Shown: positions 550 to 45,956 of the stretch, piece after piece
How positions within the stretch are numbered: the first letter of the stretch is position 1
How the letters are laid out: every line of letters begins with the position of its first letter
IMG/VR virus record: IMGVR_UViG_3300028556_000001
Coordinates: 9,227 to 73,226 of that record
Origin: a virus
Length of the DNA: 64,000 bases
Direction: 5' to 3' (one strand)
The notes under the pieces: generated by a model
What the model was told of the DNA's origin: nothing
The model's input: the letters and a program-made list of their open reading frames with translations, nothing else
The model's database searches: none
Translations under genes and position numbers: made by a program

Positions 550-656
550 GTCGCACTCGTTCTAGGCTCGGTGCGCTGATAGCCAGATTCTTTCCTCCTG
601 CTCTTTGGGTAGTGGTACAGTTTGCCCTCCGAATGCGTCAGAAACCCTCCATTGCC

Positions 657-1514
657 CTACTTTTTCGGGCCGTCAATCTTCTTGATTTCACGGTGCGACG
701 ACTTTAGACGCTTTTGCACGCTCTTTATATCTTCGGCGGGAGCCAAATGTTCTGGCGGCGTACCACCGATTTTGACAATGGCTTGACGAACTTCCCGGCC
801 AACATTTTCGGCGGCGTTTTCTAGATTGGCTTGTCCGCGTATTTTTTCTGCTTTGATTTTGTCCTCGGTCTGCGTGACACGGAAAAGATTGGCCGCAAGC
901 TCTGTCTTGCCCATGAATTCCAGCGGGGATCGACCGTCAGGGATTCCCTTTCTCTGGCGGATTTTCCACAAATCCATATTATAAAGCCCGCGATAACCTG
1001 CATTTTGAAAAAATGGATAATTAGTTACGCCAGATACAGCCGCTATACCCGATAGTGCCCGCTCATGCTCTGAAACCTCGCCGCGAATTGCTACGCGTTC
1101 AACCCCGTCCGCCTGTTCCAAGGACATCTGGCAAGCCTCAGCCCACCTAGCAAAATAGACTTGCGCCTGTGCAACTTGAGGTTTTTTCGGGTCTCCATTC
1201 ATTGCCGCCAAGTAGCAGGCAAAGCGTGAAAGTTTGTAGTCCTGAACGGTCTTCCCTGCCACGTCCCTTGAAGTCTGGATAATATTATCCATGACGGGTA
1301 TATTTAGGCTCATAAGTGCAGCCATAGCTTTTTCGATGGATTTGCGAAAGCCTTGCAAACTTTCGTATCCTAGAAGACTTGCCAAGTCAGATGCCCACCA
1401 AAAAAGAAACCCGTTCGTATTAGAAAGGGCTTCAAATCCGGCCTTGTGTGGAGCAGTTGGCTCCAATTGAAAGGGACTATCGCCGGAGGCTTCGCTGGGG
1501 GTGTCTTCGCTCAC
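657..1514 (-). CDS. dinD: DinD / Bro-N-like DNA-damage-inducible protein (E1 cargo)
   Basis: Motifs WWASDLASLLGY, DYKLSRFACYLAAMNGDPKKPQVAQAQVYFA, FQNAGYRGLY, ELAANLFRVTQTE, VGREVRQAI..GGTPPE typical of DinD. Confidence 0.8.
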   Translation of the reverse strand: MSEDTPSEASGDSPFQLEPTAPHKAGFEALSNTNGFLFWWASDLASLLGYESLQGFRKSIEKAMAALMSLNIPVMDNIIQTSRDVAGKTVQDYKLSRFACYLAAMNGDPKKPQVAQAQVYFARWAEACQMSLEQADGVERVAIRGEVSEHERALSGIAAVSGVTNYPFFQNAGYRGLYNMDLWKIRQRKGIPDGRSPLEFMGKTELAANLFRVTQTEDKIKAEKIRGQANLENAAENVGREVRQAIVKIGGTPPEHLAPAEDIKSVQKRLKSSHREIKKIDGPKK

Positions 1515-1555
1515 GCATTGAGACTAACACCGGATATAGTTGCGGCAACATCTTT

Positions 1556-1685
1556 TTATGCCGCCTTTTCCTGTGCGTCTAGTAGGGCGATAATGTCAAC
1601 TACCTCCCAGATTTTCGTTGCGACCCCTGCCTTCGCAGAGGCAGGCTATGACGCGGGCGCGTTGGTCTTGGCTTAATTGGTTCAT
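1556..1685 (-). pseudogene. Internally deleted IS1-family transposase
   Basis: MNQLSQDQRARVIACLCEG (N-terminus, like the two intact transposases) joined out of frame to AGVATKIWEVVDIIALLDAQEKAA* (C-terminus) at a GGCA overlap near 1628-1631; upstream TTGACA-17-TAATTT. Confidence 0.85.
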
Positions 1686-1780
1686 GGTGTCAAATTAGCT
1701 TATTATGCTTGCTATGTCAAGGGGGTATTTTAAGAAAAATGCCGCCCGGTTTTTACGCCGGACGGCACGCCTATGTAGGA

Positions 1781-1912
1781 CTAGACTTTCCGCCAGATGG
1801 GGATGCCGCTACCAGGAGGCGCATATTGAATGCGACCTGTACGCGGGTTTCTCACCCGTTTGACGATGGCGACCAGTTTATAGCCGGGTCTGGGCTTGGG
1901 TTGGATAACCAT
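1781..1912 (-). CDS. Small basic peptide, 43 aa (E1 cargo)
   Basis: MVIQPKPRPGYKLVAIVKRVRNPRTGRIQYAPPGSGIPIWRKV, followed by a GC hairpin (1741-1766) and T-tract on the minus strand. Confidence 0.5.
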   Translation of the reverse strand: MVIQPKPRPGYKLVAIVKRVRNPRTGRIQYAPPGSGIPIWRKV

Positions 1913-2082
1913 TGTGGATATCCGGGCAAAACCCATTGACAACCGTGGCCGCTGATGCGATAATTCTAGTGATTGCTGAACTATCGCGGCGGCTTGTCCG
2001 GTCATACGGATGGGTTCGCCCGGAAAGTCTTAGACCCCGGCGTGTTTCAAGCACGGCACGGGGTTTTTCGTAAATTTGTGCT

Positions 2083-2544
2083 TTAGCCGGGTACCACTTC
2101 CTCCTCCTCGTCCTCAGCGACAGCCGGAATTGGTGGCGGCGGGTTTGCGACCGCCTCGGCTGGTTTGGTTGAAGTGCGTTTGTATCGAGTAGCACCGGGA
2201 TACCATTCTGCAAGCCCCCATGTATCGGTATTGGGGACTTTAATGAAAGCGGGATTCTTACCTAGCGCAATCGCCACGTTACGAGCGGCTATCACACTAT
2301 CCTTGTTGTCGAATTGGTAGCCGCCCGCCTTCATAGAGTCATAAAGTGTTTCCAGCGAAATTGCGCTCAATCCCCGCGACTTCCCGGCTTGCAGTATTTC
2401 TCGTACAACCGTTGCAAGTGGTCGGCCAAAATATTGGTCTGGTCGCGTCACCCCGCCTGTCGATTGAGATAATTCAATGTCAGCGTAAATCGGTGGCGCA
2501 CCTGCCGCCGAGCAAAGCTCATTGACCAATTTCTTTTTGGACAC
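2083..2544 (-). CDS. Winged-helix (HARE-HTH / RNAP delta-like) protein, E1 cargo, possibly N-truncated
   Basis: ISLETLYDSMKAGGY...NVAIALGKNPAFIKVPNTDTWGLAEWY pattern; acidic C-tail. Confidence 0.6.
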   Translation of the reverse strand: MSKKKLVNELCSAAGAPPIYADIELSQSTGGVTRPDQYFGRPLATVVREILQAGKSRGLSAISLETLYDSMKAGGYQFDNKDSVIAARNVAIALGKNPAFIKVPNTDTWGLAEWYPGATRYKRTSTKPAEAVANPPPPIPAVAEDEEEEVVPG

Positions 2545-2672
2545 AAGCTATTGCTGGCCCTAACCTGTCCGCCTTTGACCGCGCTGGCCTTTGGCTCTGG
2601 CGGCGGCGGTACTACACCTGTGGCACGTTGAACCACGTCAAAGGCAATCTGGGCAAAGTCTCGTTTCGGCAT
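2545..2672 (-). pseudogene. Truncated small KGG-motif basic protein of the kind seen next to IS1-like transposases
   Basis: MPKRDFAQIAFDVVQRATG...AVKGGQVRA then loses similarity; a related GRKGGKARA fragment is in E4. Confidence 0.5.
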
Positions 2673-3057
2673 AGCCCCAACATATCATGCTTGCTGCCCA
2701 ATTCCAGTCCAAAGCCGGGTTTTATAATTCAAACTGTACCACTACCAAAATTCGCCATCGCTCGCGAGCTTCCGGTGGCATCGCCATCAGGCATTTAATC
2801 GCAGCGTCGTATAGCGGCTTCATCTTAGCGCGAAACTCTAGGCATCCGGGCGGCAAGTCTTCGTCGCGGATGATGAATGATGGAGGAGGTTTCATTGAAA
2901 GTAGTGCTGGGGCCGCTACGGCGAGTCTTGCATCGCCCTGCCTCGGCCTTGCGGTAAGGGAGTTTACAAAACAGCCCCCAGCAAAGTAAGGGAGTTCTAA
3001 TGAGTGACCCCAGCAAAGGGAAAGTGAATGGCGCGGCAGGTGGATTGGCAAGCGGGA

Positions 3058-3420
3058 TTATGTGCATTCGTTGAGTTGTTTCAATTCGATGGTTATGGAA
3101 TCTTCAGGGCCGTCTATGGCGCGGATAAACATTTCAGGAACTACCTGCCTGCAATCGTCCACGGGCATGGATTGTAGCATCAGCAATTCCCGAGAGCATC
3201 CCGTCGGCGTCTCGCCGTCGCTTATCAGCACACACGACCGTAACGCTGAGACGATAGCGAGGACTAGGCTCTCCTGAAACCTTTGCTTTTTTGGCGCGGT
3301 TATCAGCCGACCCCGGCACAGCATCTTTCCGTTTTTGAAACTTGGGACGGGGCCGAGTCCTTTTAGCTGAATCGTCAGCGTCCCGGTGGACAGGTTGAGG
3401 GTTGCGTGGAATTGGCTCAT
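3058..3420 (-). CDS. RusA-like Holliday junction resolvase-fold protein (frame A)
   Basis: N-terminal GPVPSFKN and C-terminal DDCRQV...ITIELKQL resemble RusA; the central RRRD motif is in the overlapping frame. Confidence 0.5.
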   Translation of the reverse strand: MSQFHATLNLSTGTLTIQLKGLGPVPSFKNGKMLCRGRLITAPKKQRFQESLVLAIVSALRSCVLISDGETPTGCSRELLMLQSMPVDDCRQVVPEMFIRAIDGPEDSITIELKQLNECT

Positions 3421-3822: not shown

Positions 3823-3825
3823 AGG

Positions 3826-4098: not shown

Positions 4099-4271
4099 GG
4101 CTTCTTGCTTAGGAGTGCAACGTTCAAGCTATCGGGTTTACGGGAGGCGAAAGCGCAAAGGAGTTCACGCTCCGCGCTTTTCCTTGTTATGTGGGTCATC
4201 ACAACAAGCTGAAAGCGGTGGCATTTCATTTTTGGTTTAGGCATAAATTCTCCTCGGTTGGTGCGGGGGGG

Positions 4272-10813: not shown

Positions 10814-12127
10814 ATGACGCCCGAATCCGAGCGTATAGACAACTGTTGCTGCAACCCCTGTGGGTTCCCCAACAATCAATTTCCGCTTGGACAGCCCCCC
10901 CGCCGCAGGAACCGCCAGTGTGCCGACCCCGCGCAATTCATCGGGCCGCTTAATCAATGCGTGGAGATTCCCTTCTTTGGGAACGACCAGCAGGTTGCGG
11001 TTGCCGGATGTTCTTCCGGGGCCGGGGATGATGTGACAGTCGGAGTTGGCTCCAACACCGTATTCTCACACGAAAGCGTGGATGACGCCAATGTTGCGGC
11101 CTACGAATACGCCCTGCAATCGGCAGAAGCGCAAGTCCAGTGCAACAACCAGTTCTTCTCCGCCGCCCAAACCGCTAACGCGGTGTGTCCCAACGGCCAA
11201 GTCCAGCAATACACTTCCCCTGTGGGAGCGTATGTCTCGCAGGTCTCGCAAGTGGACGCCGACACCCAAGCCTATAATCTGGCGTTTGCCAAGGCCCAAT
11301 CATTGTGCGGCCAGACCGAGGCTCCGTCATTTACCCAGCAGCCATCTTCCGTCTCCATTTTTCAGGGACAATCCGCCACCCTGACCGTGCAAGTTCTCGC
11401 CATTCCAGCCGCCGCCTATCAGTGGTTTTCGGGGCACGCAGGAGACGCCTCCAGTCCTATTCCGGGGGCCACCGGCAGCACTTACATCACCCCCTTGCTT
11501 TCCTCCACGGCCTTCTATTGGGTCATGGCCACGAATGCTGCCGGGAGTGTCAACTCCAGCACGGCCACGGTGACGGTCGCTTCTCCGGCCATTCAAACCC
11601 AACCAACCGGAGGTTCGACCCCCGCCACGCCATCCGGGGTATTTACCCTATCCGTGGTCGTTTCTGGCGCGGTCAATCCGACCTATCAGTGGTATGTTGG
11701 TCTGTCCGGTAACACCTCATCACCCATTGGAGGAGCGACGGGAAGCACCTATAACGCGCCCACAAGCAGCCTTGGGTCAGTCAATTACTGGGTGCAGTTC
11801 ACCAACGCCTACGCGCAGTTGAACTCCACGACGGCGACAGTGACGGCCACCGCCAATCCGCCAGTCATTTCCTCGGTCTTTTGCACGCCACCCAACCCGT
11901 CACCCGATGGCTCCTGCCTGTTTACGGTAGTGGCGACAGGGGTGGGCACACTGGCCTACCAGTGGTATCAGGGGGTTTCGGGGGCGACGACCACTCCCGT
12001 TGGCTTCAACCAAAACACCTATACCGTGGACGTGCCTCTAAGTGGCTCCTTCCCGGTCTGGTGTCGAGTTACCGGCCCCTATGGTTCCGCCGACTCCACC
12101 ACCGTTTACCCCTGCATCGGCTGTTAA
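10814..12127 (+). CDS. Cys-rich DUF5977-like modules plus three Ig-like domains
   Basis: SQVSQVDADTQAYNLA module; three YQW(F/Y).G..G repeats. Confidence 0.8.
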   Translation: MTPESERIDNCCCNPCGFPNNQFPLGQPPRRRNRQCADPAQFIGPLNQCVEIPFFGNDQQVAVAGCSSGAGDDVTVGVGSNTVFSHESVDDANVAAYEYALQSAEAQVQCNNQFFSAAQTANAVCPNGQVQQYTSPVGAYVSQVSQVDADTQAYNLAFAKAQSLCGQTEAPSFTQQPSSVSIFQGQSATLTVQVLAIPAAAYQWFSGHAGDASSPIPGATGSTYITPLLSSTAFYWVMATNAAGSVNSSTATVTVASPAIQTQPTGGSTPATPSGVFTLSVVVSGAVNPTYQWYVGLSGNTSSPIGGATGSTYNAPTSSLGSVNYWVQFTNAYAQLNSTTATVTATANPPVISSVFCTPPNPSPDGSCLFTVVATGVGTLAYQWYQGVSGATTTPVGFNQNTYTVDVPLSGSFPVWCRVTGPYGSADSTTVYPCIGC

Positions 12128-13551
12128 TGATAGCCTCACCCAGACCTCCGACCGCCCATCCCAATGCGGGCTTCATTCCCTTCACGCCCAAATGTGTGGA
12201 GGTGCCTTATGCGTCCCCTCCTGCCGGGCCGAAAGTCTATATCACGGGGCCGGACATCTCTTCAGGGCCGAACGATGTTCCATGTGGAACATCCTACCCC
12301 TACGACCCGCGTAACTTCTCGCTCCTACAGGGAGGCATAGGCTCGAACCAGAACTCGCCCCTCTACGGCAATCGCTTTGTGCAAGTAGATGAGGTTTGTG
12401 CCGCCAATCCGCTCCTGAGCCGAATTGTCGCAGTTCCCCTCAACACCTTCTACGGGACTTCTCAGGCGCAGGCCGATGCCTTGGCGACTCTCGCTGCCAC
12501 ACAGAAAGCCCTGTATCTCCTTCAGCAGCAGGGCTGCAAGGATGTGTTATTCGCCAATACCGACCAGTCCTTTACCGCAACCTGCCAACCGGGAACCATT
12601 GGTGATGCCGTTACCGTCACTATTCCACAAGGCAGTTACTTCTCCCCAATTTCACAGGCTGCGGCAGATGCCTTGGCTGCAACCGTGGCCCACCAACAGG
12701 CTCTTGCCGGGCTTTCCTGCACCCAAGTCCAACTCCCGCAAATCCAGCTTCAACCCGTGGGAGGCCAAATTAACTCCGGGCAGACCTTTACCCTGTTCTC
12801 CGCCGCCTCCGGCGTCCCGGCCCCGACCTATCAGTGGTATCTCGGCAATTCCGGCGACCAGAGCCAGCCCATTGTCGGAGCAAACTTCCCGGCCTATACG
12901 ACCCTCGCGCTTTTGCTTACAAGCTCGTTTTGGGTGCAGGCCGTGAATGCCTATGGGTCGGCCAATTCCAATACGGCTACGGTCATTGTAGGGGCCGCGC
13001 CGACCGCGCCTGTCATCGTCTCCGCCCCGTCAGGCGGAACCGTAAAGCAACCCTCGTCCTTCACTCTCTCGGTCGTGGCCATTGGGACGCCCACTCTGAC
13101 CTACCAGTGGTATCTCGGTTTTACGGGAGACACCACGCAGCCCGTTGCAGGAGCGACCAACAATTCCTACACGATTACGACCAATACGGCCACTCCCGGC
13201 TCCTATAATTACTGGGTGAAGGTGACGAATGGCCTCGGTTCCACCAACAGCCCGACTGCCGTGGTCGTGATTCAAAACAACCCCCCGACCGTGGTGGTGA
13301 CGTGGATACCTCTCTTTCCGCACCCCAGCACGCCCTTCACCCTCACGGCCTCGGTCTCCGGTATTGGGGTTCTCGGCTACCAGTGGTATGTCGGTCTCTC
13401 TGGCGATACATCCAGCCCTATCGTTGGTGCCACCAACTCCAGTCTCCCGCGCACCGCCGGAGGGCCCGGGACAGAACATTTCTGGTGTCAAGTTGCTGGT
13501 CTCTACGGGAATGGCAATTCCAACACCGCCAGCGTAATTGTCCAACCATGA
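12127..13551 (+). CDS. Paralogous DUF5977-like plus three Ig-like domain protein
   Basis: True start ATG 12127 (TAATG overlap); SPISQAAADALA module; three YQWY.G..GD repeats. Confidence 0.8.
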   Translation: MIASPRPPTAHPNAGFIPFTPKCVEVPYASPPAGPKVYITGPDISSGPNDVPCGTSYPYDPRNFSLLQGGIGSNQNSPLYGNRFVQVDEVCAANPLLSRIVAVPLNTFYGTSQAQADALATLAATQKALYLLQQQGCKDVLFANTDQSFTATCQPGTIGDAVTVTIPQGSYFSPISQAAADALAATVAHQQALAGLSCTQVQLPQIQLQPVGGQINSGQTFTLFSAASGVPAPTYQWYLGNSGDQSQPIVGANFPAYTTLALLLTSSFWVQAVNAYGSANSNTATVIVGAAPTAPVIVSAPSGGTVKQPSSFTLSVVAIGTPTLTYQWYLGFTGDTTQPVAGATNNSYTITTNTATPGSYNYWVKVTNGLGSTNSPTAVVVIQNNPPTVVVTWIPLFPHPSTPFTLTASVSGIGVLGYQWYVGLSGDTSSPIVGATNSSLPRTAGGPGTEHFWCQVAGLYGNGNSNTASVIVQP

Positions 13552-27499: not shown

Positions 27500-27869
27500 C
27501 TACGGTTTGTAATTCTTCGCCATTGTAGCGATGTATTTCCGGCCCGCGTCCTGTTCCTTCCCTGTCAGCTTCCATTTCTTCATGTCCACGATATTTTTAA
27601 TGGCCGTGGAAACCAAGGCAGCCAGACGGCGGGGTTCGATGGCGTCAAGTTCCCATGAAGAATTTCCGAATCGCCGGATATAGGAAGCGGCGCGGCTATC
27701 CGTTATTTTGGCCGGATTTTCAGGAGGTTTCATTTCCTCCACTTGGCTCATGTTCAAGGCCAGCCGATTCACCTGCAATCCAGAATCTTCGTTTGGCAAT
27801 CGTCCAAGGGGAATGTTCAGGAATGTTTCCAATCGGTCGGCCACATCCCGTGTCATGTCAATGCCACTA
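27500..27869 (-). pseudogene. 3' half of a TopoVI-A/Toprim-like gene disrupted by E2
   Basis: Continues (P)SGIDMTRD...VNRLALN...SWELDAIEP; joins in frame to 34039-34604 when E2 and one TSD copy are removed. Confidence 0.9.
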
Positions 27870-27929
27870 GGGTCGTGGGTACTGTCCGGTTATGACCACT
27901 GACTTTTTACAATCGGCTCTTTCCGGCCT

Positions 27930-28223
27930 TTACTTCTTGGCCTCGGACATGACATAGGCCCGGACTGCGGTGAGCGGGGAGATGACTGGGGGCAACTCCA
28001 GCACGGCAATGGCGTTGCTACCCTTGTCATGGTCATAGGCCCATGCGTAGCAGCGGGAGGCTTGGGGATGGCCTACCAGAGCGAACACTTCCACGTCTCC
28101 CTCCCAGACCGGGCGACCTTGGAACGTCTCCACCACAGGAACCGTCTCCAGATGCTTGGAATCGGCCCCGTGGACGCTCTTAATGGCTTTCTGGAGGTGC
28201 GCTAGGTAGTGCTCGCGGTTCAT
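27930..28223 (-). CDS. Conserved ~97-aa protein coupled to the E2 transposase
   Basis: ATGA overlap with the transposase stop; homologue of 32694-32996 (YLAHLQKAIK...W.GDVEVF...HP.ASRCYAWA...AVRA). Confidence 0.85.
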   Translation of the reverse strand: MNREHYLAHLQKAIKSVHGADSKHLETVPVVETFQGRPVWEGDVEVFALVGHPQASRCYAWAYDHDKGSNAIAVLELPPVISPLTAVRAYVMSEAKK

Positions 28224-29053
28224 TGCTGGTAGGAGAAGAAAACGAGGTCTTTGACGGTAAGGGGTGAACGCTCGACGCCAGCAGCCATCGCCGGAGTGCA
28301 ACGGATTGTGCCGTGGAATTTCACGAGGTTGTAATAGGCGAAGTGCAGGGCGACGGCAGCCTTAAAATTCTCCAGCTTCTTGCTAAACCCGTTCGTCAAG
28401 CGGGCAAAACGGCGGCAGTGCATCCGCACCGTATGATTCTGCTTCTCGACAAAGGACGTGGAAATCTTGGTGGGGTCAGGACGGCCCACGAGCATGGCCT
28501 TGTCCACCTTAACCACGGCAGGAGGGCTATACCTACGCTGTTCCGCCGATTCCGGCGATGCGAACTGCTTTACAATCTGCCCGTAGTCAATCCCCACGCC
28601 CCAAGTTGTCTCCACCGCCGGGGCGTAGTGAATCAGGCCATCCGTCGAAAGCTGAATGCGCTTCGTCAGCCGCATGGAGAGGTCACTAAGGAAAAGGTTC
28701 GTGCTTTTGTAGTCCCGTTTGCCGACATGGAAGGCCGGGACGAGCTTCGTTTCAGCATCGAGGGCGACGAAGGTGTAGGCGTCCCCGTAACCCTGTTTAA
28801 AGTCCTCCGGCAAGCAGTTTGCCTGCTTCTTGTTGATGAAGGCCCAAAGTTCGTCGGCCTCCAGCCGTTCACAGGACAGGTTACGCATGCGGTCGTCTAG
28901 GTAGGCCGCGCAGCCTTCGCCGACGCGCTTGCCGACGTTCATCACGGTTTCCTTGTCCACGTCGAGCATACGGCTGATGCCCCGGATGCTGGAGCCTTCC
29001 GCGAGGGCGGACACAATGGAGACTTGCTTGTCGAATGAGAGGTGGTTGCTCAT
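28220..29053 (-). CDS. IS1-family DDE transposase (E2)
   Basis: N-terminal HTH (LAEGSSIRGISR), catalytic-type motifs ADELW, STDG, STSFVEKQN, RRFARLTNGFSKK, TPAMAAG. Confidence 0.92.
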   Translation of the reverse strand: MSNHLSFDKQVSIVSALAEGSSIRGISRMLDVDKETVMNVGKRVGEGCAAYLDDRMRNLSCERLEADELWAFINKKQANCLPEDFKQGYGDAYTFVALDAETKLVPAFHVGKRDYKSTNLFLSDLSMRLTKRIQLSTDGLIHYAPAVETTWGVGIDYGQIVKQFASPESAEQRRYSPPAVVKVDKAMLVGRPDPTKISTSFVEKQNHTVRMHCRRFARLTNGFSKKLENFKAAVALHFAYYNLVKFHGTIRCTPAMAAGVERSPLTVKDLVFFSYQQ

Positions 29054-29119
29054 GGGTCGTTTTTGATTGTTGACTTAAATGTAATACATCAATACCATTT
29101 CGTCAACAATTATTTTTGT

Positions 29120-29317
29120 ATGACAGAAAAGAAAAAAAGAGGCAGACCAAAGGTATCCCCGGACAAATTCAAACAGCCGGGGGTATCCTTTCGCCTAAGC
29201 CCAGAGGAGTCTGCCGTACTTAGAGCAGCCTCTACCCTTAGTTCCCAATCGGTCTCCGAATGGTCGAGAAAAGTGTTGCTTTTAGAAGCGGAAAGATTAT
29301 TGTCAGACCGAAAATGA
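29120..29317 (+). CDS. Ribbon-helix-helix protein with GRPK hook, divergent from the transposase
   Basis: MTEKKKRGRPK...VSFRLSPEE....RAA......VSEWSR; homologue at 31642-31812. Confidence 0.75.
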   Translation: MTEKKKRGRPKVSPDKFKQPGVSFRLSPEESAVLRAASTLSSQSVSEWSRKVLLLEAERLLSDRK

Positions 29318-29318
29318 A

Positions 29319-29392
29319 TGGAGCCGGACGGATTCGAGCCGACATCTCCCAACTGTAAAGGACGGGCGGTTTGCCGATTAACCTACGGCCCC
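29319..29392 (-). tRNA. Degenerate tRNA-like sequence (pseudo-tRNA, identity undetermined) inside E2
   Basis: Acceptor GGGGCCG/CGGCTCC-A, U8-A9, D stem GGTT/AACC with GG in the loop, T arm GTCGG-CTCGAAT-CCGTC; anticodon arm irregular. Confidence 0.65.
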
Positions 29393-29420
29393 AGCATTTT
29401 CAGACTAAGAAGTAGTCCCT

Positions 29421-29464
29421 CAACCCGTACGGCCCTCCTATCAGGGTAAAAGCCGTACGGGTTG
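29421..29464. repeat. Perfect 13-bp inverted repeat upstream of the tRNA-like sequence
   Basis: CAACCCGTACGGC (29421-29433) / GCCGTACGGGTTG (29452-29464). Confidence 0.8.
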
Positions 29465-29550
29465 TGCCTTTTATATATGCCGCGCTAAGTTTCGCTGGGA
29501 CAACGACTTGCGCTTTATTTTATCACCATAAATTTAGAAATAGAAGGTGG

Positions 29551-29946
29551 TTATTCCACCAAAGACCACTTGCCGTCTTTGAACTGGAAAATATTAGAAT
29601 TACTAGACAGGGCTACACCGAAACCATCGCGAGAAGTTACCTTGGGATTTTTGGATTGTACGTAATCCCATAGCTCGTCTCGGGTCATCGGCCTTCCGGT
29701 TGATTTTAGGGCTTCTATCGCCAATTCCTTGCTGCTCTTCATTCGCTCCAAAGGCTCACGAATGAGTTTAGAAATTTTTGCCAAGTTCATATGTTCGTCC
29801 GATGGGAAAACGTCCCGTGGGTCAAGCATGTCGGCTGCTTGCCGCAAACGCTTTACTTCGGCTTCCATGCGGTCGGCTTCCATACGCATACCATAAGCGT
29901 ATCGCTTAGAGGCAGGTGGAGGAGGTGGTGGTGGATTGGGTTTCAC
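29551..29946 (-). CDS. Coiled-coil plus winged-helix (HARE-HTH-like) protein, E2 cargo
   Basis: AIEALKSTGRPMTRDELWDYV...FGVALSSNSNIFQFKDGKWSL. Confidence 0.65.
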   Translation of the reverse strand: MKPNPPPPPPPASKRYAYGMRMEADRMEAEVKRLRQAADMLDPRDVFPSDEHMNLAKISKLIREPLERMKSSKELAIEALKSTGRPMTRDELWDYVQSKNPKVTSRDGFGVALSSNSNIFQFKDGKWSLVE

Positions 29947-30122
29947 GAGCCAACCATAAGGATAGCTCTATCCTATGTCAATGGCCTATTTTACCCTCTA
30001 AAAGTGCTCAAATGCGCTCGTATGACTCTAGCCGCGCTTCTAGAGGGGTTTGGCCTTGTCGTGTTCTGAGGGGCCATTGGTAGTGTCCTAATTTGGAATG
30101 ACCCCCAAGCTCAATACCCCCA

Positions 30123-30350
30123 CTAATTGCTCCACAATCTTACCACGCTACTGCAATACTTACTCATACCGGCCTGATTTGTCGCCGTCATGGGTTTGTT
30201 GTGGAAAACAACGGCGTGTCGTCCTTCGCACTCAAAATCAAACCGATATAGGCCCTCACATCCGTCTGGCGTATTACAGGGCCCTTTCAATGGGCCAATG
30301 CCGAAAGAATCTTCGCCGAATTTTATGTTTGGCAGAATAGGATGAGCCAT
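30123..30350 (-). CDS. Small hypothetical protein (E3 cargo)
   Basis: 75-aa ATG ORF downstream of trpC; no recognisable motif. Confidence 0.35.
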   Translation of the reverse strand: MAHPILPNIKFGEDSFGIGPLKGPCNTPDGCEGLYRFDFECEGRHAVVFHNKPMTATNQAGMSKYCSSVVRLWSN

Positions 30351-30440
30351 TCCAACACTAGGTCATGTTTGTTGGATAAACTCAAGCCCGCTTACTTACT
30401 TCATAGCCCTAGTAGCTATCACATGTTTTACCGCACAGAT

Positions 30441-31301
30441 TTAGGCGGAAACTGGCTCCCGCTTAAAGCGGGTAACGCCTGTATGTTGCAGGCTCACCTT
30501 CTCAAATGCTTCCAGCTCGGCGCGAATACCGATGGGTGACTTGAGTAGTGATGTGCCGATAAGCGCAGCGTCAAACCCCATTTCCATAACTTTGGCAAAG
30601 TTTTGCGGATTGATGCCGCTCTCGGCCACCTTAACACAATCCCTGGGAAGCTTACTGATTAGATTAAACGCACCAAGCACTGTGGTAAAATCTCCGCCCG
30701 TTAAACGACTCAGGGCAAAGCGAATGTCTCCATCGAAATTGCGACTGTTAATGCCGCAAATCTCCACGTCTTTAGGTAGCGTCAGGATTTGGTCCTCGCT
30801 GCGAACTTCGCAAAGAACATGCAGACCTAGGCTCCTCGCAAAAGAGTGTAGTTTCTGAAAATCTTCTGGGCTAAGAATATCAGGATGCGCCATTAGTAAG
30901 ATTGCGTCTGCTCCGAATGCACGAGCCTCTAAAACCTGATACTCGTCTATAATGAAATCCTTTCTGAGAATTGGTTTGGAAATCACCTTTCTCACGCTTT
31001 TGATTGATTCAACTATCATCCCAAAATGCAGCTTATTTGTGAGCACCGAAACGGCGTGAACTATCTTGGACTCTTGATAGGCGTAAGGAGATTCCTGAAC
31101 CAATCGTGGATTCATCATTCCCGCGCTGGGAGATTTGACTTTAATCTCAGCAATTATCCCACCTCCGCGAACAGCCTCTTTAAAGTCAAGGACTGGGGGA
31201 GCGTTCTTTAGCCAACGCTCTAACACCGTGGAAGGTCTAATCCTTTTAGCATCAGCGACTTGCTGGCGCACACCGATAAGAATTTCGTGAATGATGTCCA
31301 T
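30441..31301 (-). CDS. trpC: Indole-3-glycerol phosphate synthase-family protein (E3 cargo)
   Basis: IAEIKVKSPS, SVLT, PILRKDFIIDEYQVLEARAFGADAILLM, LCEV, GINSRN, VAESGI, DAALIGTSL: IGPS catalytic E/K/K/E/N/E/S positions present. Confidence 0.92.
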   Translation of the reverse strand: MDIIHEILIGVRQQVADAKRIRPSTVLERWLKNAPPVLDFKEAVRGGGIIAEIKVKSPSAGMMNPRLVQESPYAYQESKIVHAVSVLTNKLHFGMIVESIKSVRKVISKPILRKDFIIDEYQVLEARAFGADAILLMAHPDILSPEDFQKLHSFARSLGLHVLCEVRSEDQILTLPKDVEICGINSRNFDGDIRFALSRLTGGDFTTVLGAFNLISKLPRDCVKVAESGINPQNFAKVMEMGFDAALIGTSLLKSPIGIRAELEAFEKVSLQHTGVTRFKREPVSA

Positions 31302-31314
31302 ATTGCGAAGGATT

Positions 31315-31587
31315 CTAGTAAGCAGCTAGGCAATAGACAGCAGCAACCTTCTCAGGGAACAGGGCGTCACCTGTTGGCATGAACCGGGCCATGACGACAC
31401 GAGGGGTTTGATGAGTTGAGAGGTTGTTTGCCAATAAACCATCGAACTCCTCCTGAGTCAAGCCCTCGTAGAACAGGGTGATTTCAGACAATGGAATACC
31501 ATCTTTGGCTGCATTTTGGCGCACCAAATCGAGGTCAACCCCATGCTGATTTTTCATGTCCTTTTGGAGCCCAAGAAAAGCTTTCAT
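31315..31587 (-). CDS. Hypothetical 90-aa protein immediately upstream of trpC
   Basis: Stop 13 nt before the trpC start, same strand. Confidence 0.55.
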   Translation of the reverse strand: MKAFLGLQKDMKNQHGVDLDLVRQNAAKDGIPLSEITLFYEGLTQEEFDGLLANNLSTHQTPRVVMARFMPTGDALFPEKVAAVYCLAAY

Positions 31588-31641
31588 CCGCTTGGGTCAA
31601 GCACTTTTTGTGCCTCGATGCGCCTTGTTGCTCCCGTCTCC

Positions 31642-31812
31642 TTATTGAGATAAAATCGAGAATCTGACCCATTCCGAGAGGTCTTTACCTTCCGCCCGGG
31701 CCTTGGCCTCGACCTGCTCCCTCTCCGCCTCGGTCAGGCGAATCTGAAGGTTTACAGACCTAGCTGCCCCCTTGGGGAGCTTTGGCCTGCCTAGGGTTTT
31801 CTTTATTGTCAT
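31642..31812 (-). CDS. Ribbon-helix-helix protein with GRPK hook, divergent from the E3 transposase
   Basis: MTIKKTLGRPKLPKG..RSVNLQIRLTEAERE.VE.KA...GKDLSEWVR. Confidence 0.8.
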   Translation of the reverse strand: MTIKKTLGRPKLPKGAARSVNLQIRLTEAEREQVEAKARAEGKDLSEWVRFSILSQ

Positions 31813-31824
31813 GCAAAAAAGATG

Positions 31825-31853
31825 TTGACGTAAGCATATTACTGCATTACGGT
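31825..31853 (+). promoter_or_regulatory. Sigma70-like promoter of the E3 transposase
   Basis: TTGACG-17-TACGGT; E2 has an equivalent TTGACG-17-TACATT on the minus strand near 29078-29106. Confidence 0.6.
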
Positions 31854-31875
31854 AAGTCAATAATCAAATTCAGCC

Positions 31876-32697
31876 ATGCCAAACGTCCTCCCATTCGATA
31901 AACAGGTCAACATCGTCGCCATGCTCGCGGAAGGCGCGTCCATTCGTGGGGTCGAGCGCATTACCGGGGTTCATCGGGATACCATCATGCGCCTTGGGGC
32001 GAAGGTGGGGAATGCCTGCGCTGACTTCATGGACACCCGCCTGCGTGACCTTACCTGCCAGCGGGTCGAGATAGACGAGCTTTGGGGCTTCATCGCCAAG
32101 AAGAACGCCGGATGCCTGCCGGAAGAGCTTAGGAACGGCCTTGGGGACGTTTACACCTACGTCGCCTTAGATGCGGACACAAAACTGATTCCGACCTTCC
32201 ATGTCGGCAAGCGCGACGAGATGAACACCGTGGCCTTTGTGGAAGACCTGCGGAGCCGGATGCGGACGCGGATTGAACTCTCTTCTGACGGATGGCGTGC
32301 TTACGCTGGCGCGGTGGACAAGGTTTTCGGATGCGAAGTGGACTACGGACAAAACGTAAAAGTTTTCGCTTCGCCGGAGAAGACCGAAGAGCGCAGATAC
32401 AGCCCGCCAAAAATCAGCAAAATTGAGCGTTCGTCCCTTATCGGGGAGCCGGAGAATATCTCGACATCCTTGGTGGAAAAGCAGAATCATACCGTGAGAA
32501 TGCACTGCCGCCGTCTGGCTCGTCTTACCAACGCTTTCAGCAAAAAACTCGACAACTTTAAGTCTGCCGTGGCCCTCCACTTTGCGTATTACAACTTCGT
32601 CAAGTTTCACCGCACCATCCGCATGACTCCGGCGATGGCCGCTGGCGTGGAGCAATCACCCCTAGAAGTCGCTAACCTCGTTGAACTAGCCCGATGA
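31876..32697 (+). CDS. IS1-family DDE transposase (E3)
   Basis: LAEGASIRG, IDELW, SSDG, STSLVEKQN, RRLARLTNAFSKK, TPAMAAG; divergent homologue of 28220-29053. Confidence 0.92.
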   Translation: MPNVLPFDKQVNIVAMLAEGASIRGVERITGVHRDTIMRLGAKVGNACADFMDTRLRDLTCQRVEIDELWGFIAKKNAGCLPEELRNGLGDVYTYVALDADTKLIPTFHVGKRDEMNTVAFVEDLRSRMRTRIELSSDGWRAYAGAVDKVFGCEVDYGQNVKVFASPEKTEERRYSPPKISKIERSSLIGEPENISTSLVEKQNHTVRMHCRRLARLTNAFSKKLDNFKSAVALHFAYYNFVKFHRTIRMTPAMAAGVEQSPLEVANLVELAR

Positions 32698-32996
32698 CTC
32701 ACCCCGAGTATCTAGCGCATCTCCAGAAGGCCATTAAAAAGACCTTTGGGCTGGAGTCTGAATACGTCGAGACGGTCAAGGTGGTTGAGGCATTCAGGGG
32801 CAAAGTCATTTGGGACGGTGACGTAGAGGTTTTCACGGTCAAACACCCCGAGGCGTCCCGTTGCTACGCATGGGCGCATGACATAGAGACAGGCTCCCAC
32901 TCCCTTGTCGTGCTGGGGCGTCCGCCTATCAAGTCCGCCCTAGATGCTGTCAGGGCTGCGCTTGTGACCGAAGGCAGACGCCAATCCAGTAACTAG
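32694..32996 (+). CDS. Conserved 100-aa protein coupled to the E3 transposase
   Basis: ATGA overlap; homologue of 27930-28223. Confidence 0.85.
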   Translation: MTHPEYLAHLQKAIKKTFGLESEYVETVKVVEAFRGKVIWDGDVEVFTVKHPEASRCYAWAHDIETGSHSLVVLGRPPIKSALDAVRAALVTEGRRQSSN

Positions 32997-33114
32997 GCAT
33001 CCCGCACTTGTTATAAATCGTTTAACTTCTGTTGCCGGGCAATCCATCTCCCACAGTAACCGTCAAGCTTCTTTCCAATAGTCACCGCTCAAATTAGGAC
33101 ACTACCGGGGCCAT

Positions 33115-33936
33115 TCATTCCACAATCCTTGAGGTTATTTCCACGTCTCCATGACTCGTTTTCCATTTCACGATTAAATCAATCTTCACCGGGCGGCAGT
33201 TTTGCGACCCGACAATGTAGTGAAAGACATAGAACGCGCCTCCTACTGCTTTGAAATTGTGAGTAGGATTACCGGGAGACAGAAAGTTTTTTGTGGGTGT
33301 AAGTAAGTCGCCAGTGTGGGATACGACCAAGGCGTCTAGATATTCCACACAACCCTCATTAACATTGCGTTCAAGTGGATCTGGACTGCCTGCTTTTTCC
33401 GTAGCGCAGTCGAAGGTCAAATCGAGGTTTTCCCCTATGTAGCTTTTTGCACCTTCAAATCCCAGCATCCTACCAAAGCATTTTTGTATGCCACCAATTC
33501 CCTTAGTCCCCACTCTTATTCTATAGTAATCGGTGTCTAATTTTCTTTCACAAATAAAAGTTCTGCTGCTTGTCCAATTACCAAACTGCAACGGAGTGTT
33601 TGGTCTGTAGCAACCCGTGTCTTTTTGGTCGAAGAATAAATCTAGCTGCGGTTTTGACTCCAGTATGTTTATCTTTTCTAGAAGTTGATAGTGGAATCTA
33701 TAGGCCGACTCCAAGAGTGCCCCAAAGAATAAGATGCAACAAATGATAGCACCCCAAAATGACGCCCATCCGGGAGCGGTGAGCAGCGTATAAAGGCTCC
33801 CTAAAAACAATAGCCCAAAGGCCCATCGTGCCTTCATGGTCTCCCTCCGTTCGACCGCATCCGAAAAGATGGATGAAAAATAGGAGGTTCGACTTGGGGG
33901 CTCTTTCTCTGCTGTCGGAGATTTCTTGCGAGCCAT
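33115..33936 (-). CDS. Two-TM membrane protein with soluble beta-rich domain (E2 cargo)
   Basis: Two hydrophobic helices; AT-richer than the phage backbone; start taken at MARKK. Confidence 0.7.
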   Translation of the reverse strand: MARKKSPTAEKEPPSRTSYFSSIFSDAVERRETMKARWAFGLLFLGSLYTLLTAPGWASFWGAIICCILFFGALLESAYRFHYQLLEKINILESKPQLDLFFDQKDTGCYRPNTPLQFGNWTSSRTFICERKLDTDYYRIRVGTKGIGGIQKCFGRMLGFEGAKSYIGENLDLTFDCATEKAGSPDPLERNVNEGCVEYLDALVVSHTGDLLTPTKNFLSPGNPTHNFKAVGGAFYVFHYIVGSQNCRPVKIDLIVKWKTSHGDVEITSRIVE

Positions 33937-34038
33937 AGACCCAGAGCATGATAATGGATGCCGAGGTGGTAAAGCCTCAAGCGGAACGCCTGTAATCCCC
34001 ATTTGTAAAAATGGGGTGCCTCATAACCGGACACTACC

Positions 34039-34604
34039 GGGTCGTGGTCGCCCAAATATAAAACGTAAAGCTCCTTTTCCTGTTCTGCGGCCTTGAGGAA
34101 ACGCTTACTAGCCTCATACATTGCGCTGGATGAGGAATAACCTTTGTTCGCCGTGAACGGCACATCCCATTCCGAGCAGACTGGAATCAGGACGCCTTCC
34201 AATGCCTGCTTCTCCACCATAACCTCCATGTAACATGGCTGATTCGCCCAGCGGTCAACGCGAAACTGAGTTGCGGCGGTGTGTAAAATGTCGGCAGGCG
34301 AAGACCAATGGGGGTTCTCGACCGTCTCACGTCCCCGGTCTTTGATAACATCCCAGTCAATGCGCCCAGCCATGCGAGCATCTGAAACCAGATTGCCAAC
34401 ATTCTTATAGCTGCGTTCCGTATTCTCCACGATGTTGCGGCTGACAAGCTGGTAGTAAAGCTGGCGAAGGCTCAAGTCGTATCCCGCCTCGACGTATTCA
34501 GTCAAGATTCCATTGATAGTTCCAATCATACCAACCGCTTCAGAACCAAAGTTCTTTTCGATGAATTGTTCTCTCACATGAACACATTTACCCACTTCCT
34601 GCAA
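34039..34604 (-). pseudogene. 5' half of the TopoVI-A/Spo11-like Toprim gene disrupted by E2
   Basis: LSLRQLYYQLV, VEKQAL, KGYSS, YLGDHDP; sequence switches to TIR-encoded VVSGYE exactly at the element end. Confidence 0.9.
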
Positions 34605-43185: not shown

Positions 43186-43521
43186 ATGAAAATACATCAC
43201 ACACCAGAGAGCGCATGTAAGGTCGTGCGCGTCATGTTCGCCGGGAAAATCGCCGCCACTTGGCCGGAGTATTTCCAGCAGCAACAGGAAACCTTCCGCC
43301 TTCCTCCCACCTCGCGGGCATTGTCCGGAACTTGGTTGAACAGTCTAAAGGCTTTGATTCTCGTCCGAGAACAATGCAACGGGATTAAACGGGCCGGAGC
43401 CAAGCCGCGCAAAATTCAATACACTGACGAGGAAATTATGGCAGCAATCGGGAAAATCATTCCCGAGCTTTTCGCGGAGTATTGGGAGGCCATCAACACT
43501 AAGGAGTTTTCCAATGTCTAA
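43186..43521 (+). CDS. Hypothetical protein
   Basis: AAAGG SD and hairpin leader; first gene of a rightward operon. Confidence 0.65.
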   Translation: MKIHHTPESACKVVRVMFAGKIAATWPEYFQQQQETFRLPPTSRALSGTWLNSLKALILVREQCNGIKRAGAKPRKIQYTDEEIMAAIGKIIPELFAEYWEAINTKEFSNV

Positions 43522-43704
43522 CTCCCTGCCAACCCCACCCACCAGCACGCCCGCCAAGATAGCTACTAAATCCCGCATGGGGATGCTACCTAATGGCATT
43601 GTCCGGCAGCGGCTTTACTTCGCCTTCATTGATGGCGACCAAGCGAGCAATGCACACCCAACACGAGCCAAGGCAATAGCCGAAGCCCGCAAACGCTATA
43701 ACGC

Positions 43705-44133
43705 ATGAGCACCCAAACCACCGCCAAGCCGTCTAGGATGCTCCCAAGTGTGCCGCAAGCATCCGACCCTATGGAGATTGTCAATAAGGCGGTAAACCGC
43801 GCACGGAGGCATCTAGCAAAGCCCCTGAAGCACTGGGAGGGGGTGACTAGCCTTCCCCTGCGTGACGCCTCCCAAGTCATTACGCCAGCCTCCTATAACC
43901 AATGCCTGCCAGAAGTGGAAAAGAAGTCCACCATCCACTTCACCGTCCCGCGCTCGACTAAGACGCGATGGGTGAAGGCGGCGAGGGGGAGACGGCTGGA
44001 GGATTGGATTGTGGACATCATCACCCATGCCGTTGACTGCACGGATGCGCTGAATGGGAATTTTAAAAAGGATGCCATCCGCTTCCCCAAGGAAATGAAC
44101 TGGCCGCCACGGGTAACGAGGATAGACCCATGA
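43705..44133 (+). CDS. Protein with RHH-like C-terminal domain
   Basis: STIHFTVPRSTKTRWVKAARGRRLEDWIVDII. Confidence 0.55.
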   Translation: MSTQTTAKPSRMLPSVPQASDPMEIVNKAVNRARRHLAKPLKHWEGVTSLPLRDASQVITPASYNQCLPEVEKKSTIHFTVPRSTKTRWVKAARGRRLEDWIVDIITHAVDCTDALNGNFKKDAIRFPKEMNWPPRVTRIDP

Positions 44134-44453
44134 CCCCCCAACTCCTCGACGCCGTGAGATGCCTGCACGGCCTGTGCCGCCAGCGTGATGGCACGATTAC
44201 CGTCAGCCTCATGGACTGGCAGAGGCTACAACGCTGCCTGACTGCGCTGGATTCGCCCAAGGCACTCCCCGCCCTCACCGACAAGCAGTCACGAGTTGTT
44301 CACCTCATTTCCCAAAGCATGACGAGCAAGGCCATTGCGGGAATCTTGGGGGTCTCCATCAAGACGGTGGAGAAGCACCGGCAGGCGGCGATGGACAAGC
44401 TGGGAATCCATGACGTGGCGGGATTAACGCGGTGGGTGTTGACAAATCAGTGA
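44130..44453 (+). CDS. LuxR/NarL-type HTH regulator (no receiver domain)
   Basis: LTDKQSRVVHLI....SKAIAGILGVSIKTVEKHRQAAMDKLGIHDVAGLTRW. Confidence 0.88.
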   Translation: MTPQLLDAVRCLHGLCRQRDGTITVSLMDWQRLQRCLTALDSPKALPALTDKQSRVVHLISQSMTSKAIAGILGVSIKTVEKHRQAAMDKLGIHDVAGLTRWVLTNQ

Positions 44454-44592
44454 AGCTGGGTGAGGTTAGGGAATGAAATCGGCACTGCCTCACTTTGACC
44501 GCTGCCCCCTCTGGCACGATGCCAGACGGCTCCCGGTCGGGGAGCAAGGGGACGCTGGTTAAGATGATTGTCGCCTGAGCTTAGAGAGTGGG

Positions 44593-45120
44593 TTACTTGT
44601 CCTCCGGTTTGGATTGTTGCGTCGGGGGTGGTGGCGTGTCTATGGGCTTCCATTTCGAAAAAGCCAACCCCAGAAGTCGAACGGGACATAAACCGACGAC
44701 TTTTAGCAGTGCTAGCATCGCCCTCGGTTCGGTATATGGAGGCATTAGGAATGCTAGACGCAAAAAAATTATCATACCCGCGCTCGCAGAGATGCAAAAT
44801 GCCACTCCTGTGGCGATGCCGAAGTGGAAGAATATACAAACGCAAGCGATTACGAAAACTAGCTGAAAGAAAAAGTAATCACATGCCCCCTCCCGTGAGT
44901 AATGCGGACGAAGCCCCAAGAGGATAAAAAACGGGATGCCAAACGCGAAAATAAAGAGGGCGACGGTAGGTGGAATGTCCAGCTTTTCGAGTGGGAGCAT
45001 TTGAACGACAACAACAATCGAAGTCCCGGCCATAATGCGGCTATTTTGAGACATTGCGCGGAGGGCATTTAGAGCCTTGAGGGCCTCAAGTGCTTCCGCC
45101 TTCTCCGCATCTTCCATCAC
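44593..45120 (-). CDS. Multi-pass membrane protein (E4 cargo)
   Basis: Four to five hydrophobic segments; start overlaps the transposase remnant stop. Confidence 0.65.
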   Translation of the reverse strand: MMEDAEKAEALEALKALNALRAMSQNSRIMAGTSIVVVVQMLPLEKLDIPPTVALFIFAFGIPFFILLGLRPHYSREGACDYFFFQLVFVIACVCIFFHFGIATGVAFCISASAGMIIFLRLAFLMPPYTEPRAMLALLKVVGLCPVRLLGLAFSKWKPIDTPPPPTQQSKPEDK

Positions 45121-45221
45121 GCCGCTTTAGCTGCGCCCTTGGCGTCTAGCAACCCGATAACGTCACTCAATTCCCAAACTGTCTTAGAGATTCCCGCAGC
45201 CATTGCCGGGGTGCAACGAAG
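45117..45221 (-). pseudogene. C-terminal remnant of an IS1-family transposase
   Basis: LRCTPAMAAGISKTVWELSDVIGLLDAKGAAKAA*. Confidence 0.85.
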
Positions 45222-45326
45222 GGAGGCAGGAAAGGCGGGAAGGCTCGGGCGGCTGCGCTGACGCCGGAGAGACGCAGGGAGATAGCGAGGATGGGCGGGA
45301 AGGCTGGAGGGAGAGGGCGGAAGTGA
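45222..45326 (+). pseudogene. C-terminal remnant of a KGG-motif small basic protein
   Basis: GGRKGGKARAAALTPERRREIARMGGKAGGRGRK*, abutting the transposase remnant back-to-back. Confidence 0.7.
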
Positions 45327-45721
45327 AACCAGATTATCCGCAACCCGACTTTCGGGAAGACATCCGAGCTTGGTATGCCGGGAGCAAGGGAGCGGATTTA
45401 TCATCCGAAAAGCAGCGGACGGCGTTGCGGGTATTGCTGGCCGTTAAGTATCCTGACGAGGACACCACAAACCTACGGGCTGATTGCATCCTGCACGTGC
45501 GGCAATACGTGCGGAGTCAGCCGCCCGTTGCGCCGCTCGGGCTTCTGCAAAAAGCAGACGGCCCATTGATTTTCCCCATGACCGAAAGTGTAGCGGTTGC
45601 ATTGCATGACCTCGTTGAAAGAGGCATGTCTGTGCCCACTTTGCTAGGGATGGTGAAATTCGTGGCAGAAATCGAAGGGCGAACAGGCAGGAATCCCGCA
45701 CCAGAACATCCCCAAGGGTAA
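45323..45721 (+). CDS. Hypothetical protein (E4 cargo)
   Basis: GTG start overlapping the KGG remnant stop (GTGA). Confidence 0.55.
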   Translation: MKPDYPQPDFREDIRAWYAGSKGADLSSEKQRTALRVLLAVKYPDEDTTNLRADCILHVRQYVRSQPPVAPLGLLQKADGPLIFPMTESVAVALHDLVERGMSVPTLLGMVKFVAEIEGRTGRNPAPEHPQG

Positions 45722-45956
45722 TCGGCTTATCGTCTTCGTCCGCCATCCCCACACCTTAAACTGAGGCAGTGCCGAATGTCAACCCTCAGACGATGTTTCC
45801 AGCATGAGCGACCGTAATACTCCGCATAAGTCAGGCTAATAGGATGGAAGGGGATGAAGATGGGGCTTGCGGTTGTGTTCACAATGGAGGATTGTGCGGG
45901 CATCCGAAACGGATGACCGACCCGGCGGAACCGGGAATGCAAGGAGAGAAAAGACC

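Follow-up and report, generated by a model that had tools for sequence, protein, structure and literature searches.

The 64-kb window analysed here comprises bases 9227-73226 of the 73,226-bp IMG/VR virus record IMGVR_UViG_3300028556_000001, a record with direct terminal repeats and a completeness rating of 100%. It holds four transposons of one family, designated E1 to E4, each bounded by a single pair of 17-bp terminal inverted repeats (TIRs) with passenger genes inside that pair; no flanking insertion sequence (IS) copies were seen around any of them. All eight ends read GG(T/C)A(G/C)TG at the tip, and they lie exactly where the initial annotation, made from the letters alone, had placed four elements (Table 1). 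E1, E2 (with E3 nested in it) and E4 together occupy 9,593 of the 73,226 bases, i.e. 13% of the phage genome. A degenerate TIR pattern matches the window eight times against 0.31 expected (the pattern was derived from those very ends), and no further match was found across the entire virus record.

Four elements in one phage genome

Insertion can be reconstructed most completely for E2, which is flanked by an exact target-site duplication (TSD) and splits a phage gene of the phrog_6247 family. The site of E2 is empty in four of four related phage loci (L126-L129): there the two gene halves are contiguous, 15 nt apart and in one frame, which is the arrangement of the window after removal of E2 and one copy of the TSD. 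E3, which has a TSD of its own, is the second element with a complete transposase gene. The E2 and E3 transposases are 62-63% identical to each other, and IS1 is the best NCBIfam model for both, with scores below the curated cut-offs (51.4 bits for E2 and 56.6 bits for E3 against 100 for NCBIfam IS1; 18.6 and 22.0 bits against 24.1 for Pfam DDE_Tnp_IS1). PF03400 (DDE_Tnp_IS1) is matched by 18 out of 18 aligned family members at E<=0.01 (best 5.7e-09), and homologues carry the name 'IS1 family transposase' from JGI, NCBI and PGAP, including in plasmid records. The proteins start directly with a helix-turn-helix (HTH), and one uninterrupted open reading frame (ORF) of 273-277 aa spans the HTH and DDE regions; the classical insA/insB' frameshift arrangement is not present in the window transposases. 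With 1293-6161 bp for the window elements and 1911-7160 bp for their relatives, the sizes lie above the compact range (under ~1.2 kb) of classical IS1.

Both autonomous elements carry, beside the transposase, a small gene that we call acc (54% identity between the E2 and E3 products) and a gene for a ribbon-helix-helix (RHH) protein. The RHH protein of E2 scores 19.2 bits with the Pfam NikA-like/DUF6290 model, which is under the cut-off, and its true start is probably an internal ATG near 29120. On the transposase tree E2 falls together with L004 and L005, whose TIR core is the same (support 100/99); a 131-aa ORF is the sole ORF that E2 shares with L004 beyond the core genes (36% identity over 118 aa, E 3.7e-16). 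The sister of E3 on the tree is L003: the transposases are 77% identical and the TIRs identical, and the two have no cargo ORF cluster in common. The cargo of E3 includes a protein resembling indole-3-glycerol-phosphate synthase (IGPS), which matches Pfam IGPS at E 4.9e-45 (154 bits) and stays under the cut-offs of all NCBIfam TrpC models (best 177.6 vs 260).

E1 has no transposase gene, and a blastx search found no trace of a transposase remnant in it. One of its two cargo genes encodes a DinD-like protein (213.6 bits with the NCBIfam model for DNA damage-inducible protein D, cut-off 242 not reached; 27.7 bits with Pfam Bro-N, over the 25.6 cut-off; phrog_8036 at E 2.4e-88), which also matches the PADLOC candidate defence family PDC-S13 (E 1.7e-87). 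The exact E1 17-mer is present in 25 viral stretches and is paired within four of them (L092, L097, L098 and L102). For example, E1-type TIRs bound a 1852-bp element without transposase and with an 8-bp TSD (L098), a 3417-bp element with a 279-aa family transposase and an 8-bp TSD (L102), and a further pair with a family transposase inside (L097). The second cargo ORF of E1 (153 aa) shows a marginal likeness to a 145-aa ORF of L102 (E 0.004). L092:2051-2587 and L098:1776-2250, both E1-type, encode a common small protein (57% identity over 63 aa), whose gene seems to be frameshifted in L098. Along with the 131-aa ORF of E2 and L004, it hints at further semi-conserved small genes in what we treat as the cargo region.

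The initial annotation had listed E4 as one more cargo-carrying transposon of this type. It is indeed a real TIR-bounded element, but a decayed derivative that retains only the last ~24-35 codons of a transposase: the remnant gives blastx matches to at least 28 family transposases (best E 3.5e-05) and blastn matches of up to 97% over 30 nt. E4-type ends were found in metagenome contigs around an autonomous 2430-bp element with a full-length transposase and an 8-bp TSD (L228), and around two short derivatives of 454 bp (L229) and 669 bp (L252), each with an 8-bp TSD. The metagenome scan for this end returned 117 stretches, most of them with an unpaired match. In viral contigs all ten matches to the E4-type end were unpaired and without a transposase, and these were taken as chance. 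A 196-bp pair of E4-type ends without TSD, resembling a miniature inverted-repeat transposable element (MITE), occurs at L207:7318-7513 and L223:1882-2077; in these two metagenome contigs one and the same site is seen in opposite orientations. In the window, a 107-aa ORF at 44130-44453 (+) stops 27 nt short of the left E4 end; nothing corresponding to it is present in the four related phages, and by eye its C-terminal part resembles a LuxR-type HTH.

Each of the four TIR types thus represents a separate lineage that has inserted elsewhere. Since the four elements fall into four different TIR/transposase lineages, the phage has been colonised at least four separate times, in agreement with the repeated colonisation that had been proposed for it.

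Table 1. Elements E1 to E4, their genes and the flanking phage gene, with coordinates in the 64-kb window
Feature	Coordinates	Strand	Details
E1, non-autonomous	608..2746		2139 bp; perfect 17/17 TIR, core GTACAG; no TSD
E1 left TIR	608..624	+	
E1 cargo, DinD-like protein with Bro-N domain	657..1514	-	285 aa
E1 cargo ORF	2083..2544	-	153 aa; no match in Pfam, NCBIfam, PHROGs or PADLOC
E1 right TIR	2730..2746	-	
Phage gene split by E2, C-terminal part	27500..27877	-	
E2 TSD, left copy	27870..27877		exact 8 bp, GGGTCGTG
E2, autonomous	27878..34038		6161 bp with nested E3, 3133 bp without; 16/17 TIR, core TCCGGT
E2 left TIR	27878..27894	+	
E2 acc	27930..28301	-	123 aa; overlaps end of transposase gene; ORF cluster C1
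E2 transposase	28220..29053	-	277 aa; single ORF; N-terminal HTH, motif DKE
E2 small RHH gene	29042..29317	+	divergent from transposase; cluster C2
E2 131-aa ORF	29551..29946	-	also in related L004 element; no match in NCBIfam, PHROGs or PADLOC
E3 TSD, left copy	30070..30078		exact 9 bp, GGGGCCATT
E3, autonomous, nested in E2 cargo region	30079..33106		3028 bp; 17/17 TIR, canonical core TCCTAA
E3 left TIR	30079..30095	+	
E3 cargo, IGPS-like protein	30441..31301	-	286 aa
E3 cargo ORF	31315..31587	-	90 aa; no match in NCBIfam, PHROGs or PADLOC
E3 RHH gene	31642..31860	-	72 aa; divergent from transposase; Pfam NikA-like 31.1 bits, over 27 cut-off
E3 transposase	31876..32697	+	273 aa; single ORF; HTH motif HRD
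E3 acc	32694..32996	+	100 aa; overlaps transposase stop; cluster C1
E3 right TIR	33090..33106	-	
E3 TSD, right copy	33107..33115		9 bp, same GGGGCCATT
E2 cargo ORF	33115..34002	-	295 aa; no match in Pfam, NCBIfam, PHROGs or PADLOC
E2 right TIR	34022..34038	-	
E2 TSD, right copy	34039..34046		8 bp, same GGGTCGTG
Phage gene split by E2, N-terminal part	34039..34604	-	phrog_6247 'DNA topoisomerase', E 3e-64, profile positions 3-180 of 303
E4, decayed, non-autonomous	44481..45773		1293 bp; 15/17 TIR, core CCTCA[C/G]; no TSD
E4 left TIR	44481..44497	+	
E4 ORF	44593..45120	-	175 aa; no match in PHROGs or PADLOC
E4 transposase C-terminal remnant	45141..45245	-	last ~24-35 codons
E4 ORF	45203..45721	+	172 aa; no match in PHROGs or PADLOC
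E4 right TIR	45757..45773	-	

Distribution, conserved genes and cargo of the family

A protein search returned at least 7998 significant homologues of the E3 transposase, and in contigs of a one-genome-per-species collection relatives are encoded in at least 558 of the 600 candidate stretches listed. The best 80 genome loci were analysed (the metagenome-assembled genomes that hold them are labelled mostly Verrucomicrobiota and Acidobacteriota) by looking around the gene for an inverted pair of 17-mers bounded by GG...CC, and TIRs with at least 14/17 agreement and exact TSDs of 8 or 9 bp were counted. TIRs with a TSD were found at 60 loci, TIRs only at eight and neither at 12; in each of these 12 the sequence breaks off less than 900 bp from one side of the gene. 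The 60 complete genome-borne elements measure 1911-7160 bp (median 2877) around a transposase gene of ~0.82 kb. TSDs are 8 bp long in 78 out of 80 related elements and 9 bp in the other two, and the target site shows a weak preference for S-A-N4-Y-S.

A scan of viral contigs with the single E3 transposase as query gave no match; an alignment-based scan found 42 viral contigs with transposase relatives (35-51% identity). Tip-like TIRs with a TSD were found at 19 of these 42 loci and TIRs only at seven, with sizes of 1413-6263 bp; a few distant viral relatives are nearly cargo-free (1413-1505 bp). A search of 50,697 deposited phage genomes gave a single match, in the Brevundimonas jumbo phage vB_BpoS-Gurke, where positions 174797-175669 of ON529850.1 encode a full-length, unannotated transposase relative (31.8% identity, E 6e-39).

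ORF clustering over the elements recovers the transposase in 69 of them, acc (cluster C1) in 52 plus nine in which the ORF caller took the antisense frame, and the RHH gene (cluster C2) in 25 plus five such antisense miscalls; the RHH gene lies either upstream of the transposase and divergent from it, or downstream. The initial annotation had described each element as carrying unrelated passenger genes. This holds for the variable cargo, but not for the ~100-aa and RHH genes of E2 and E3, which form a conserved three-gene core with the transposase. The predicted structure of the E3 acc protein is confident (pLDDT, the predicted local distance difference test score, 88.7) and consists of a helix, four strands and a helix. 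Foldseek gave no match to it in the PDB at E<=0.001, the best VIA-align Z score was 5.1 (TraM, VirB8 and cystatin-like alpha+beta folds), a value that common arrangements also reach, and in the protein atlas only unnamed Verrucomicrobiota clusters appeared, at 0.89. A predicted complex of transposase and acc scored 0.00, which weighs neither way.

127 clusters in the whole ORF set are singletons. The cargo set proper, defined as the 130 non-core ORFs of at least 100 aa, falls into 105 clusters, 94 of which are singletons. Pfam assigns a minority of these ORFs, with 30 families matched: PIN (four ORFs), N6_N4 methylase, M78 peptidase, GmrSD_N and HNH (two each), and others including AIPR, DUF4411 and SocA_Panacea. 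PADLOC was run on the same 130 ORFs and, among the matches listed, added only methylase models and capP. The homologous transposases therefore do not sit mainly in cargo-free elements: 60 out of 60 complete elements are 1911-7160 bp long and their ORFs are mostly unique. Cargo carriage is the rule in this clade and the cargo turns over quickly, because E3 and its sister L003 share no cargo cluster, and E2 and L004 share only the 131-aa ORF.

In Acidobacteriota elements some transposases seemed to carry N-terminal extensions of up to 802 aa, which we rejected as read-through of the upstream region, since their translations look non-protein-like. The frame is open for up to ~1.6 kb upstream of the transposase in L027, L032, L040, L055, L057, L067, L075 and others, and the open stretches of the Acidobacteriota elements resemble each other. 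They are more likely a conserved stretch of DNA upstream of the gene than part of a fusion protein.

TIR architecture and the transposase HTH

The TIR length of 17 bp holds across 100 elements, in which the left and right ends agree at 0.88 for position 17 but at 0.54 for position 18. Conservation over the 54 distinct ends is highest at positions 1-7 and 14-16 and lowest at positions 8-13. The search itself imposed GG at positions 1-2, and for the viral loci a filter on positions 3-7 was applied as well; in the genome loci, where GG was the only constraint, position 6 is almost always T and position 7 almost always G (rarely C). The bipartite layout first noticed in the window (a common tip and T-rich positions 14-16 around a variable 6-nt core) is thus a property of the family. 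The commonest end is that of E3 (72 out of 136 ends). On the transposase tree its canonical core TCCTAA is spread over both large clades, and variant cores mark clades.

The initial annotation had proposed comparing the TIR core with the transposase HTH, and the two do co-vary. Residues 33-35 of the transposase are HRD in 52 out of 52 elements with TCCTAA at both ends, but in only one of 37 elements with another core at both ends; in the clade of E2 they are DKE. The core CCCTAA, with C for T at the first base, arose three times (L026, L056 and L081), and each time the arginine of the motif was replaced by Q or G. Eight phylogenetically independent pairs could be compared; motif and core changed in concert in an average of 7.7 of them and in opposition in none (p ~0.008, sign test). 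This co-variation supports, without proving, the idea that the TIR core may be read by the HTH. None of the three checks made of the initial annotation (frequency of cargo-free elements, number of lineages, co-variation of core and HTH) spoke against its reading of a gene-shuttling family, in which the core would give the transposase its specificity.

Interpretation, alternatives and relation to known systems

The observations are explained best by a divergent branch of the IS1 family whose members are unit transposons, or 'transporter IS', with one 17-bp TIR pair around transposition and passenger genes, and we hold this reading with high confidence. As judged from the known behaviour of DDE transposases, the transposase would bind the TIR via its N-terminal HTH, with residues 33-35 reading the 6-nt core (positions 8-13), and DDE cleavage would act at the conserved tip, GGTAGTG, with strand transfer across a stagger of 8 bp. 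A basic motif of the GRPK type is present at the N-terminus of the RHH protein, which may be a regulator, as InsA is for IS1, and the ~100-aa acc protein may serve as a transposition accessory factor. Different cores would keep co-resident lineages from cross-reacting. E2 and E3 are probably still able to move. No transposase matching E1 or E4 is encoded in this phage, and these two elements would move only if the host cell or a co-infecting element supplied one.

Several points weigh against this reading or parts of it. Both window transposases stay under the curated IS1 thresholds; TSDs are absent at E1 and at E4, and the ends of E4 are imperfect (15/17). The proteins flanking E4 have no match in the four related phages (L126-L129), hence no empty site was demonstrated there. 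Transposition was not observed; one sequencing run alone contains the region, probably as its source, and gives a single 73,129-bp contig and no alternative junctions. The ORFs were called crudely, and 21 of the 130 'cargo' ORFs look non-coding, being in-frame read-throughs of the stretch upstream of the transposase gene. The roles proposed for acc and the RHH protein are drawn solely from position and conservation. The pairing of HTH and core is broken by two elements (L145, and L045 with degenerate ends) and may in part be due to common ancestry. Transposases with as little as ~51-57% identity to that of E3 still have the canonical TIR without change, and variable cores are therefore the exception, not the rule, in that large clade.

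The last two points bear on the possibility that the elements are real IS1-like transposons in which differences in the core are neutral drift inherited by lineage, any core being tolerated without specificity. Clade-specific cores are also expected from simple inheritance, the canonical core stays constant across very divergent transposases, and single-end variants persist in L012, L080 and L045. However, motif and core change together in the independent pairs with none opposed, the arginine was lost on each of the three occasions on which T became C at the first core position, and variation is confined to the core, the tip and positions 14-16 staying constant; we consider drift without specificity unlikely, if worth keeping in mind. 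Less probable still is that the extra genes are lineage-specific transposon modules (for immunity, regulation or addiction) needed for maintenance, rather than shuttled passengers. acc and the RHH gene are indeed conserved core genes, the 131-aa ORF is common to E2 and L004, and several cargo families are of toxin-antitoxin type (PIN, DUF4411 and SocA_Panacea) and able to stabilise mobile elements; but 94 of the 105 cargo clusters are singletons, near-identical TIR/transposase pairs such as E3 and L003 carry unrelated ORFs, and the cargo includes enzymes without an obvious transposon role (the IGPS-like protein and DNA methylases).

Two further alternatives concern the window rather than the family. 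One is that E1 and E4 fall outside this family and are chance or relic inverted repeats around ordinary phage genes. This would fit their missing TSDs, the lack of a transposase trace in E1, the ten unpaired viral-contig matches of the E4-type 17-mer and the fact that no empty site could be shown for E4; yet the exact E1 17-mer bounds elements with TSDs (L098 and L102) and elements with transposases (L097 and L102), E4 holds a transposase C-terminal remnant, and its TIR type bounds L228, with a full transposase, as well as L229 and L252, all with 8-bp TSDs, which makes mere chance repeats very improbable. It is also highly unlikely that the record is an assembly chimera, or a prophage with host DNA, and the transposons lie in bacterial sequence. 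The record is a metagenome assembly in which eight of the ten large ORFs tested have no PHROG match, and cultured phages almost never carry the transposase (one match among 50,697 records). Against this, the record has direct terminal repeats and its rating of completeness, the gene that E2 interrupts is of a phage family and is found uninterrupted in four other viral records, of which three are rated complete, relatives are encoded in 42 further viral contigs, and the region is covered at uniform depth by a single contig of 73,129 bp; that contig is from a rhizosphere metagenome run, which is probably the source of the record.

A divergent branch of cargo-carrying IS1-like transposons has to be compared with several known systems. 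IS1-family TIRs begin with GGnnnTG and TSDs are 8-9 bp, as is the case in the window (GGnnnTG at the ends, 8 bp for E2 and 9 bp for E3), and IS1 is the best transposase model for the window proteins, with scores under the Pfam and NCBIfam cut-offs. Classical IS1 is ~0.77 kb long and has insA/insB', whereas the elements described here reach 1.9-7.2 kb, have a single-ORF transposase, and add acc, the RHH gene and passenger genes. The IS1 family of ISfinder has single-ORF and ISMhu11-type subgroups, the latter with lengths of up to ~4.6 kb; these share the single-ORF transposase and lengths beyond a bare IS, which imply passengers, a likeness in organisation and length and not one of compared sequences. 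Like MITEs and other non-autonomous IS derivatives, E1, E4, L098, L229, L252 and the 196-bp L207/L223 pair keep TIRs without a transposase; unlike MITEs, E1 and E4 are kilobase-sized, have intact ORFs and are cargo-bearing non-autonomous elements. The transporter IS (tIS), in which IS-type ends and a transposase enclose passengers within one inverted-repeat pair, is an established concept (PMC9330008 and PMC7986276). Each window element likewise has a single TIR pair with passenger ORFs rather than two IS copies, but tIS are occasional members of their families, whereas here cargo is the rule for a large clade (60 out of 60 complete elements), with fast turnover. Tn7-like transposons have variable cargo rich in defence-type genes (PMC8649781); they are much larger and use an unrelated multi-protein TnsABC machinery with target selectors, in contrast to the 2-7 kb and one small DDE transposase of the elements described here.

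The initial annotation had put forward the group as an under-described system. Passenger-carrying IS are of a known kind and the homologues are annotated automatically, so this part of the claim has to be toned down; on the other hand, we found no literature on this clade, its ends, its three-gene core or the pairing of TIR and HTH, in a search of which ISfinder and supplements were not part. According to a published analysis, phages tolerate insertion sequences badly and are unlikely IS shuttles (PMC3429520). Tentatively, and with more doubt than conviction, we suggest that these are uncharacterised and very abundant small cargo transposons of soil Verrucomicrobiota, Acidobacteriota and phages, in which three HTH residues and a 6-nt core might form an evolvable code, orthogonal lineages, of which four are present in this phage, might share a replicon without cross-mobilising, and phages might carry defence-type and metabolic cargo from host to host. 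With the cargo habit, the three-gene core and the 17-bp ends as markers, automatic delimitation of thousands of small mobile islands would become possible in soil genomes. Since toxin-antitoxin, restriction, methylase and abortive-infection types are among the sampled cargo, defence genes may spread by way of this family. The pairing of HTH and core is a compact and testable case of the evolution of transposase-end specificity, and it could supply orthogonal transposase/end tools.

Outside the elements, the record encodes a primase/helicase (phrog_239) beside the phrog_6247 'DNA topoisomerase' family protein. A single ORF of 2197 aa at 20905-27498 (+) ends just before the gene split by E2, and its translation holds a HELGH stretch. 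Five copies of a ~32-nt conserved block, spaced by 273-276 nt with one gap of 872 nt, occur at 11678-13403 within overlapping long ORFs (10814-13551), and look like a repeated protein domain of ~91 aa. A 32-nt tandem duplication (75% identity) is located at 2954-3017, ~200 nt to the right of E1. Three 31-nt direct repeats with a spacing of 93-95 nt are found at 48266-48484, and could be a regulatory or iteron-like array.

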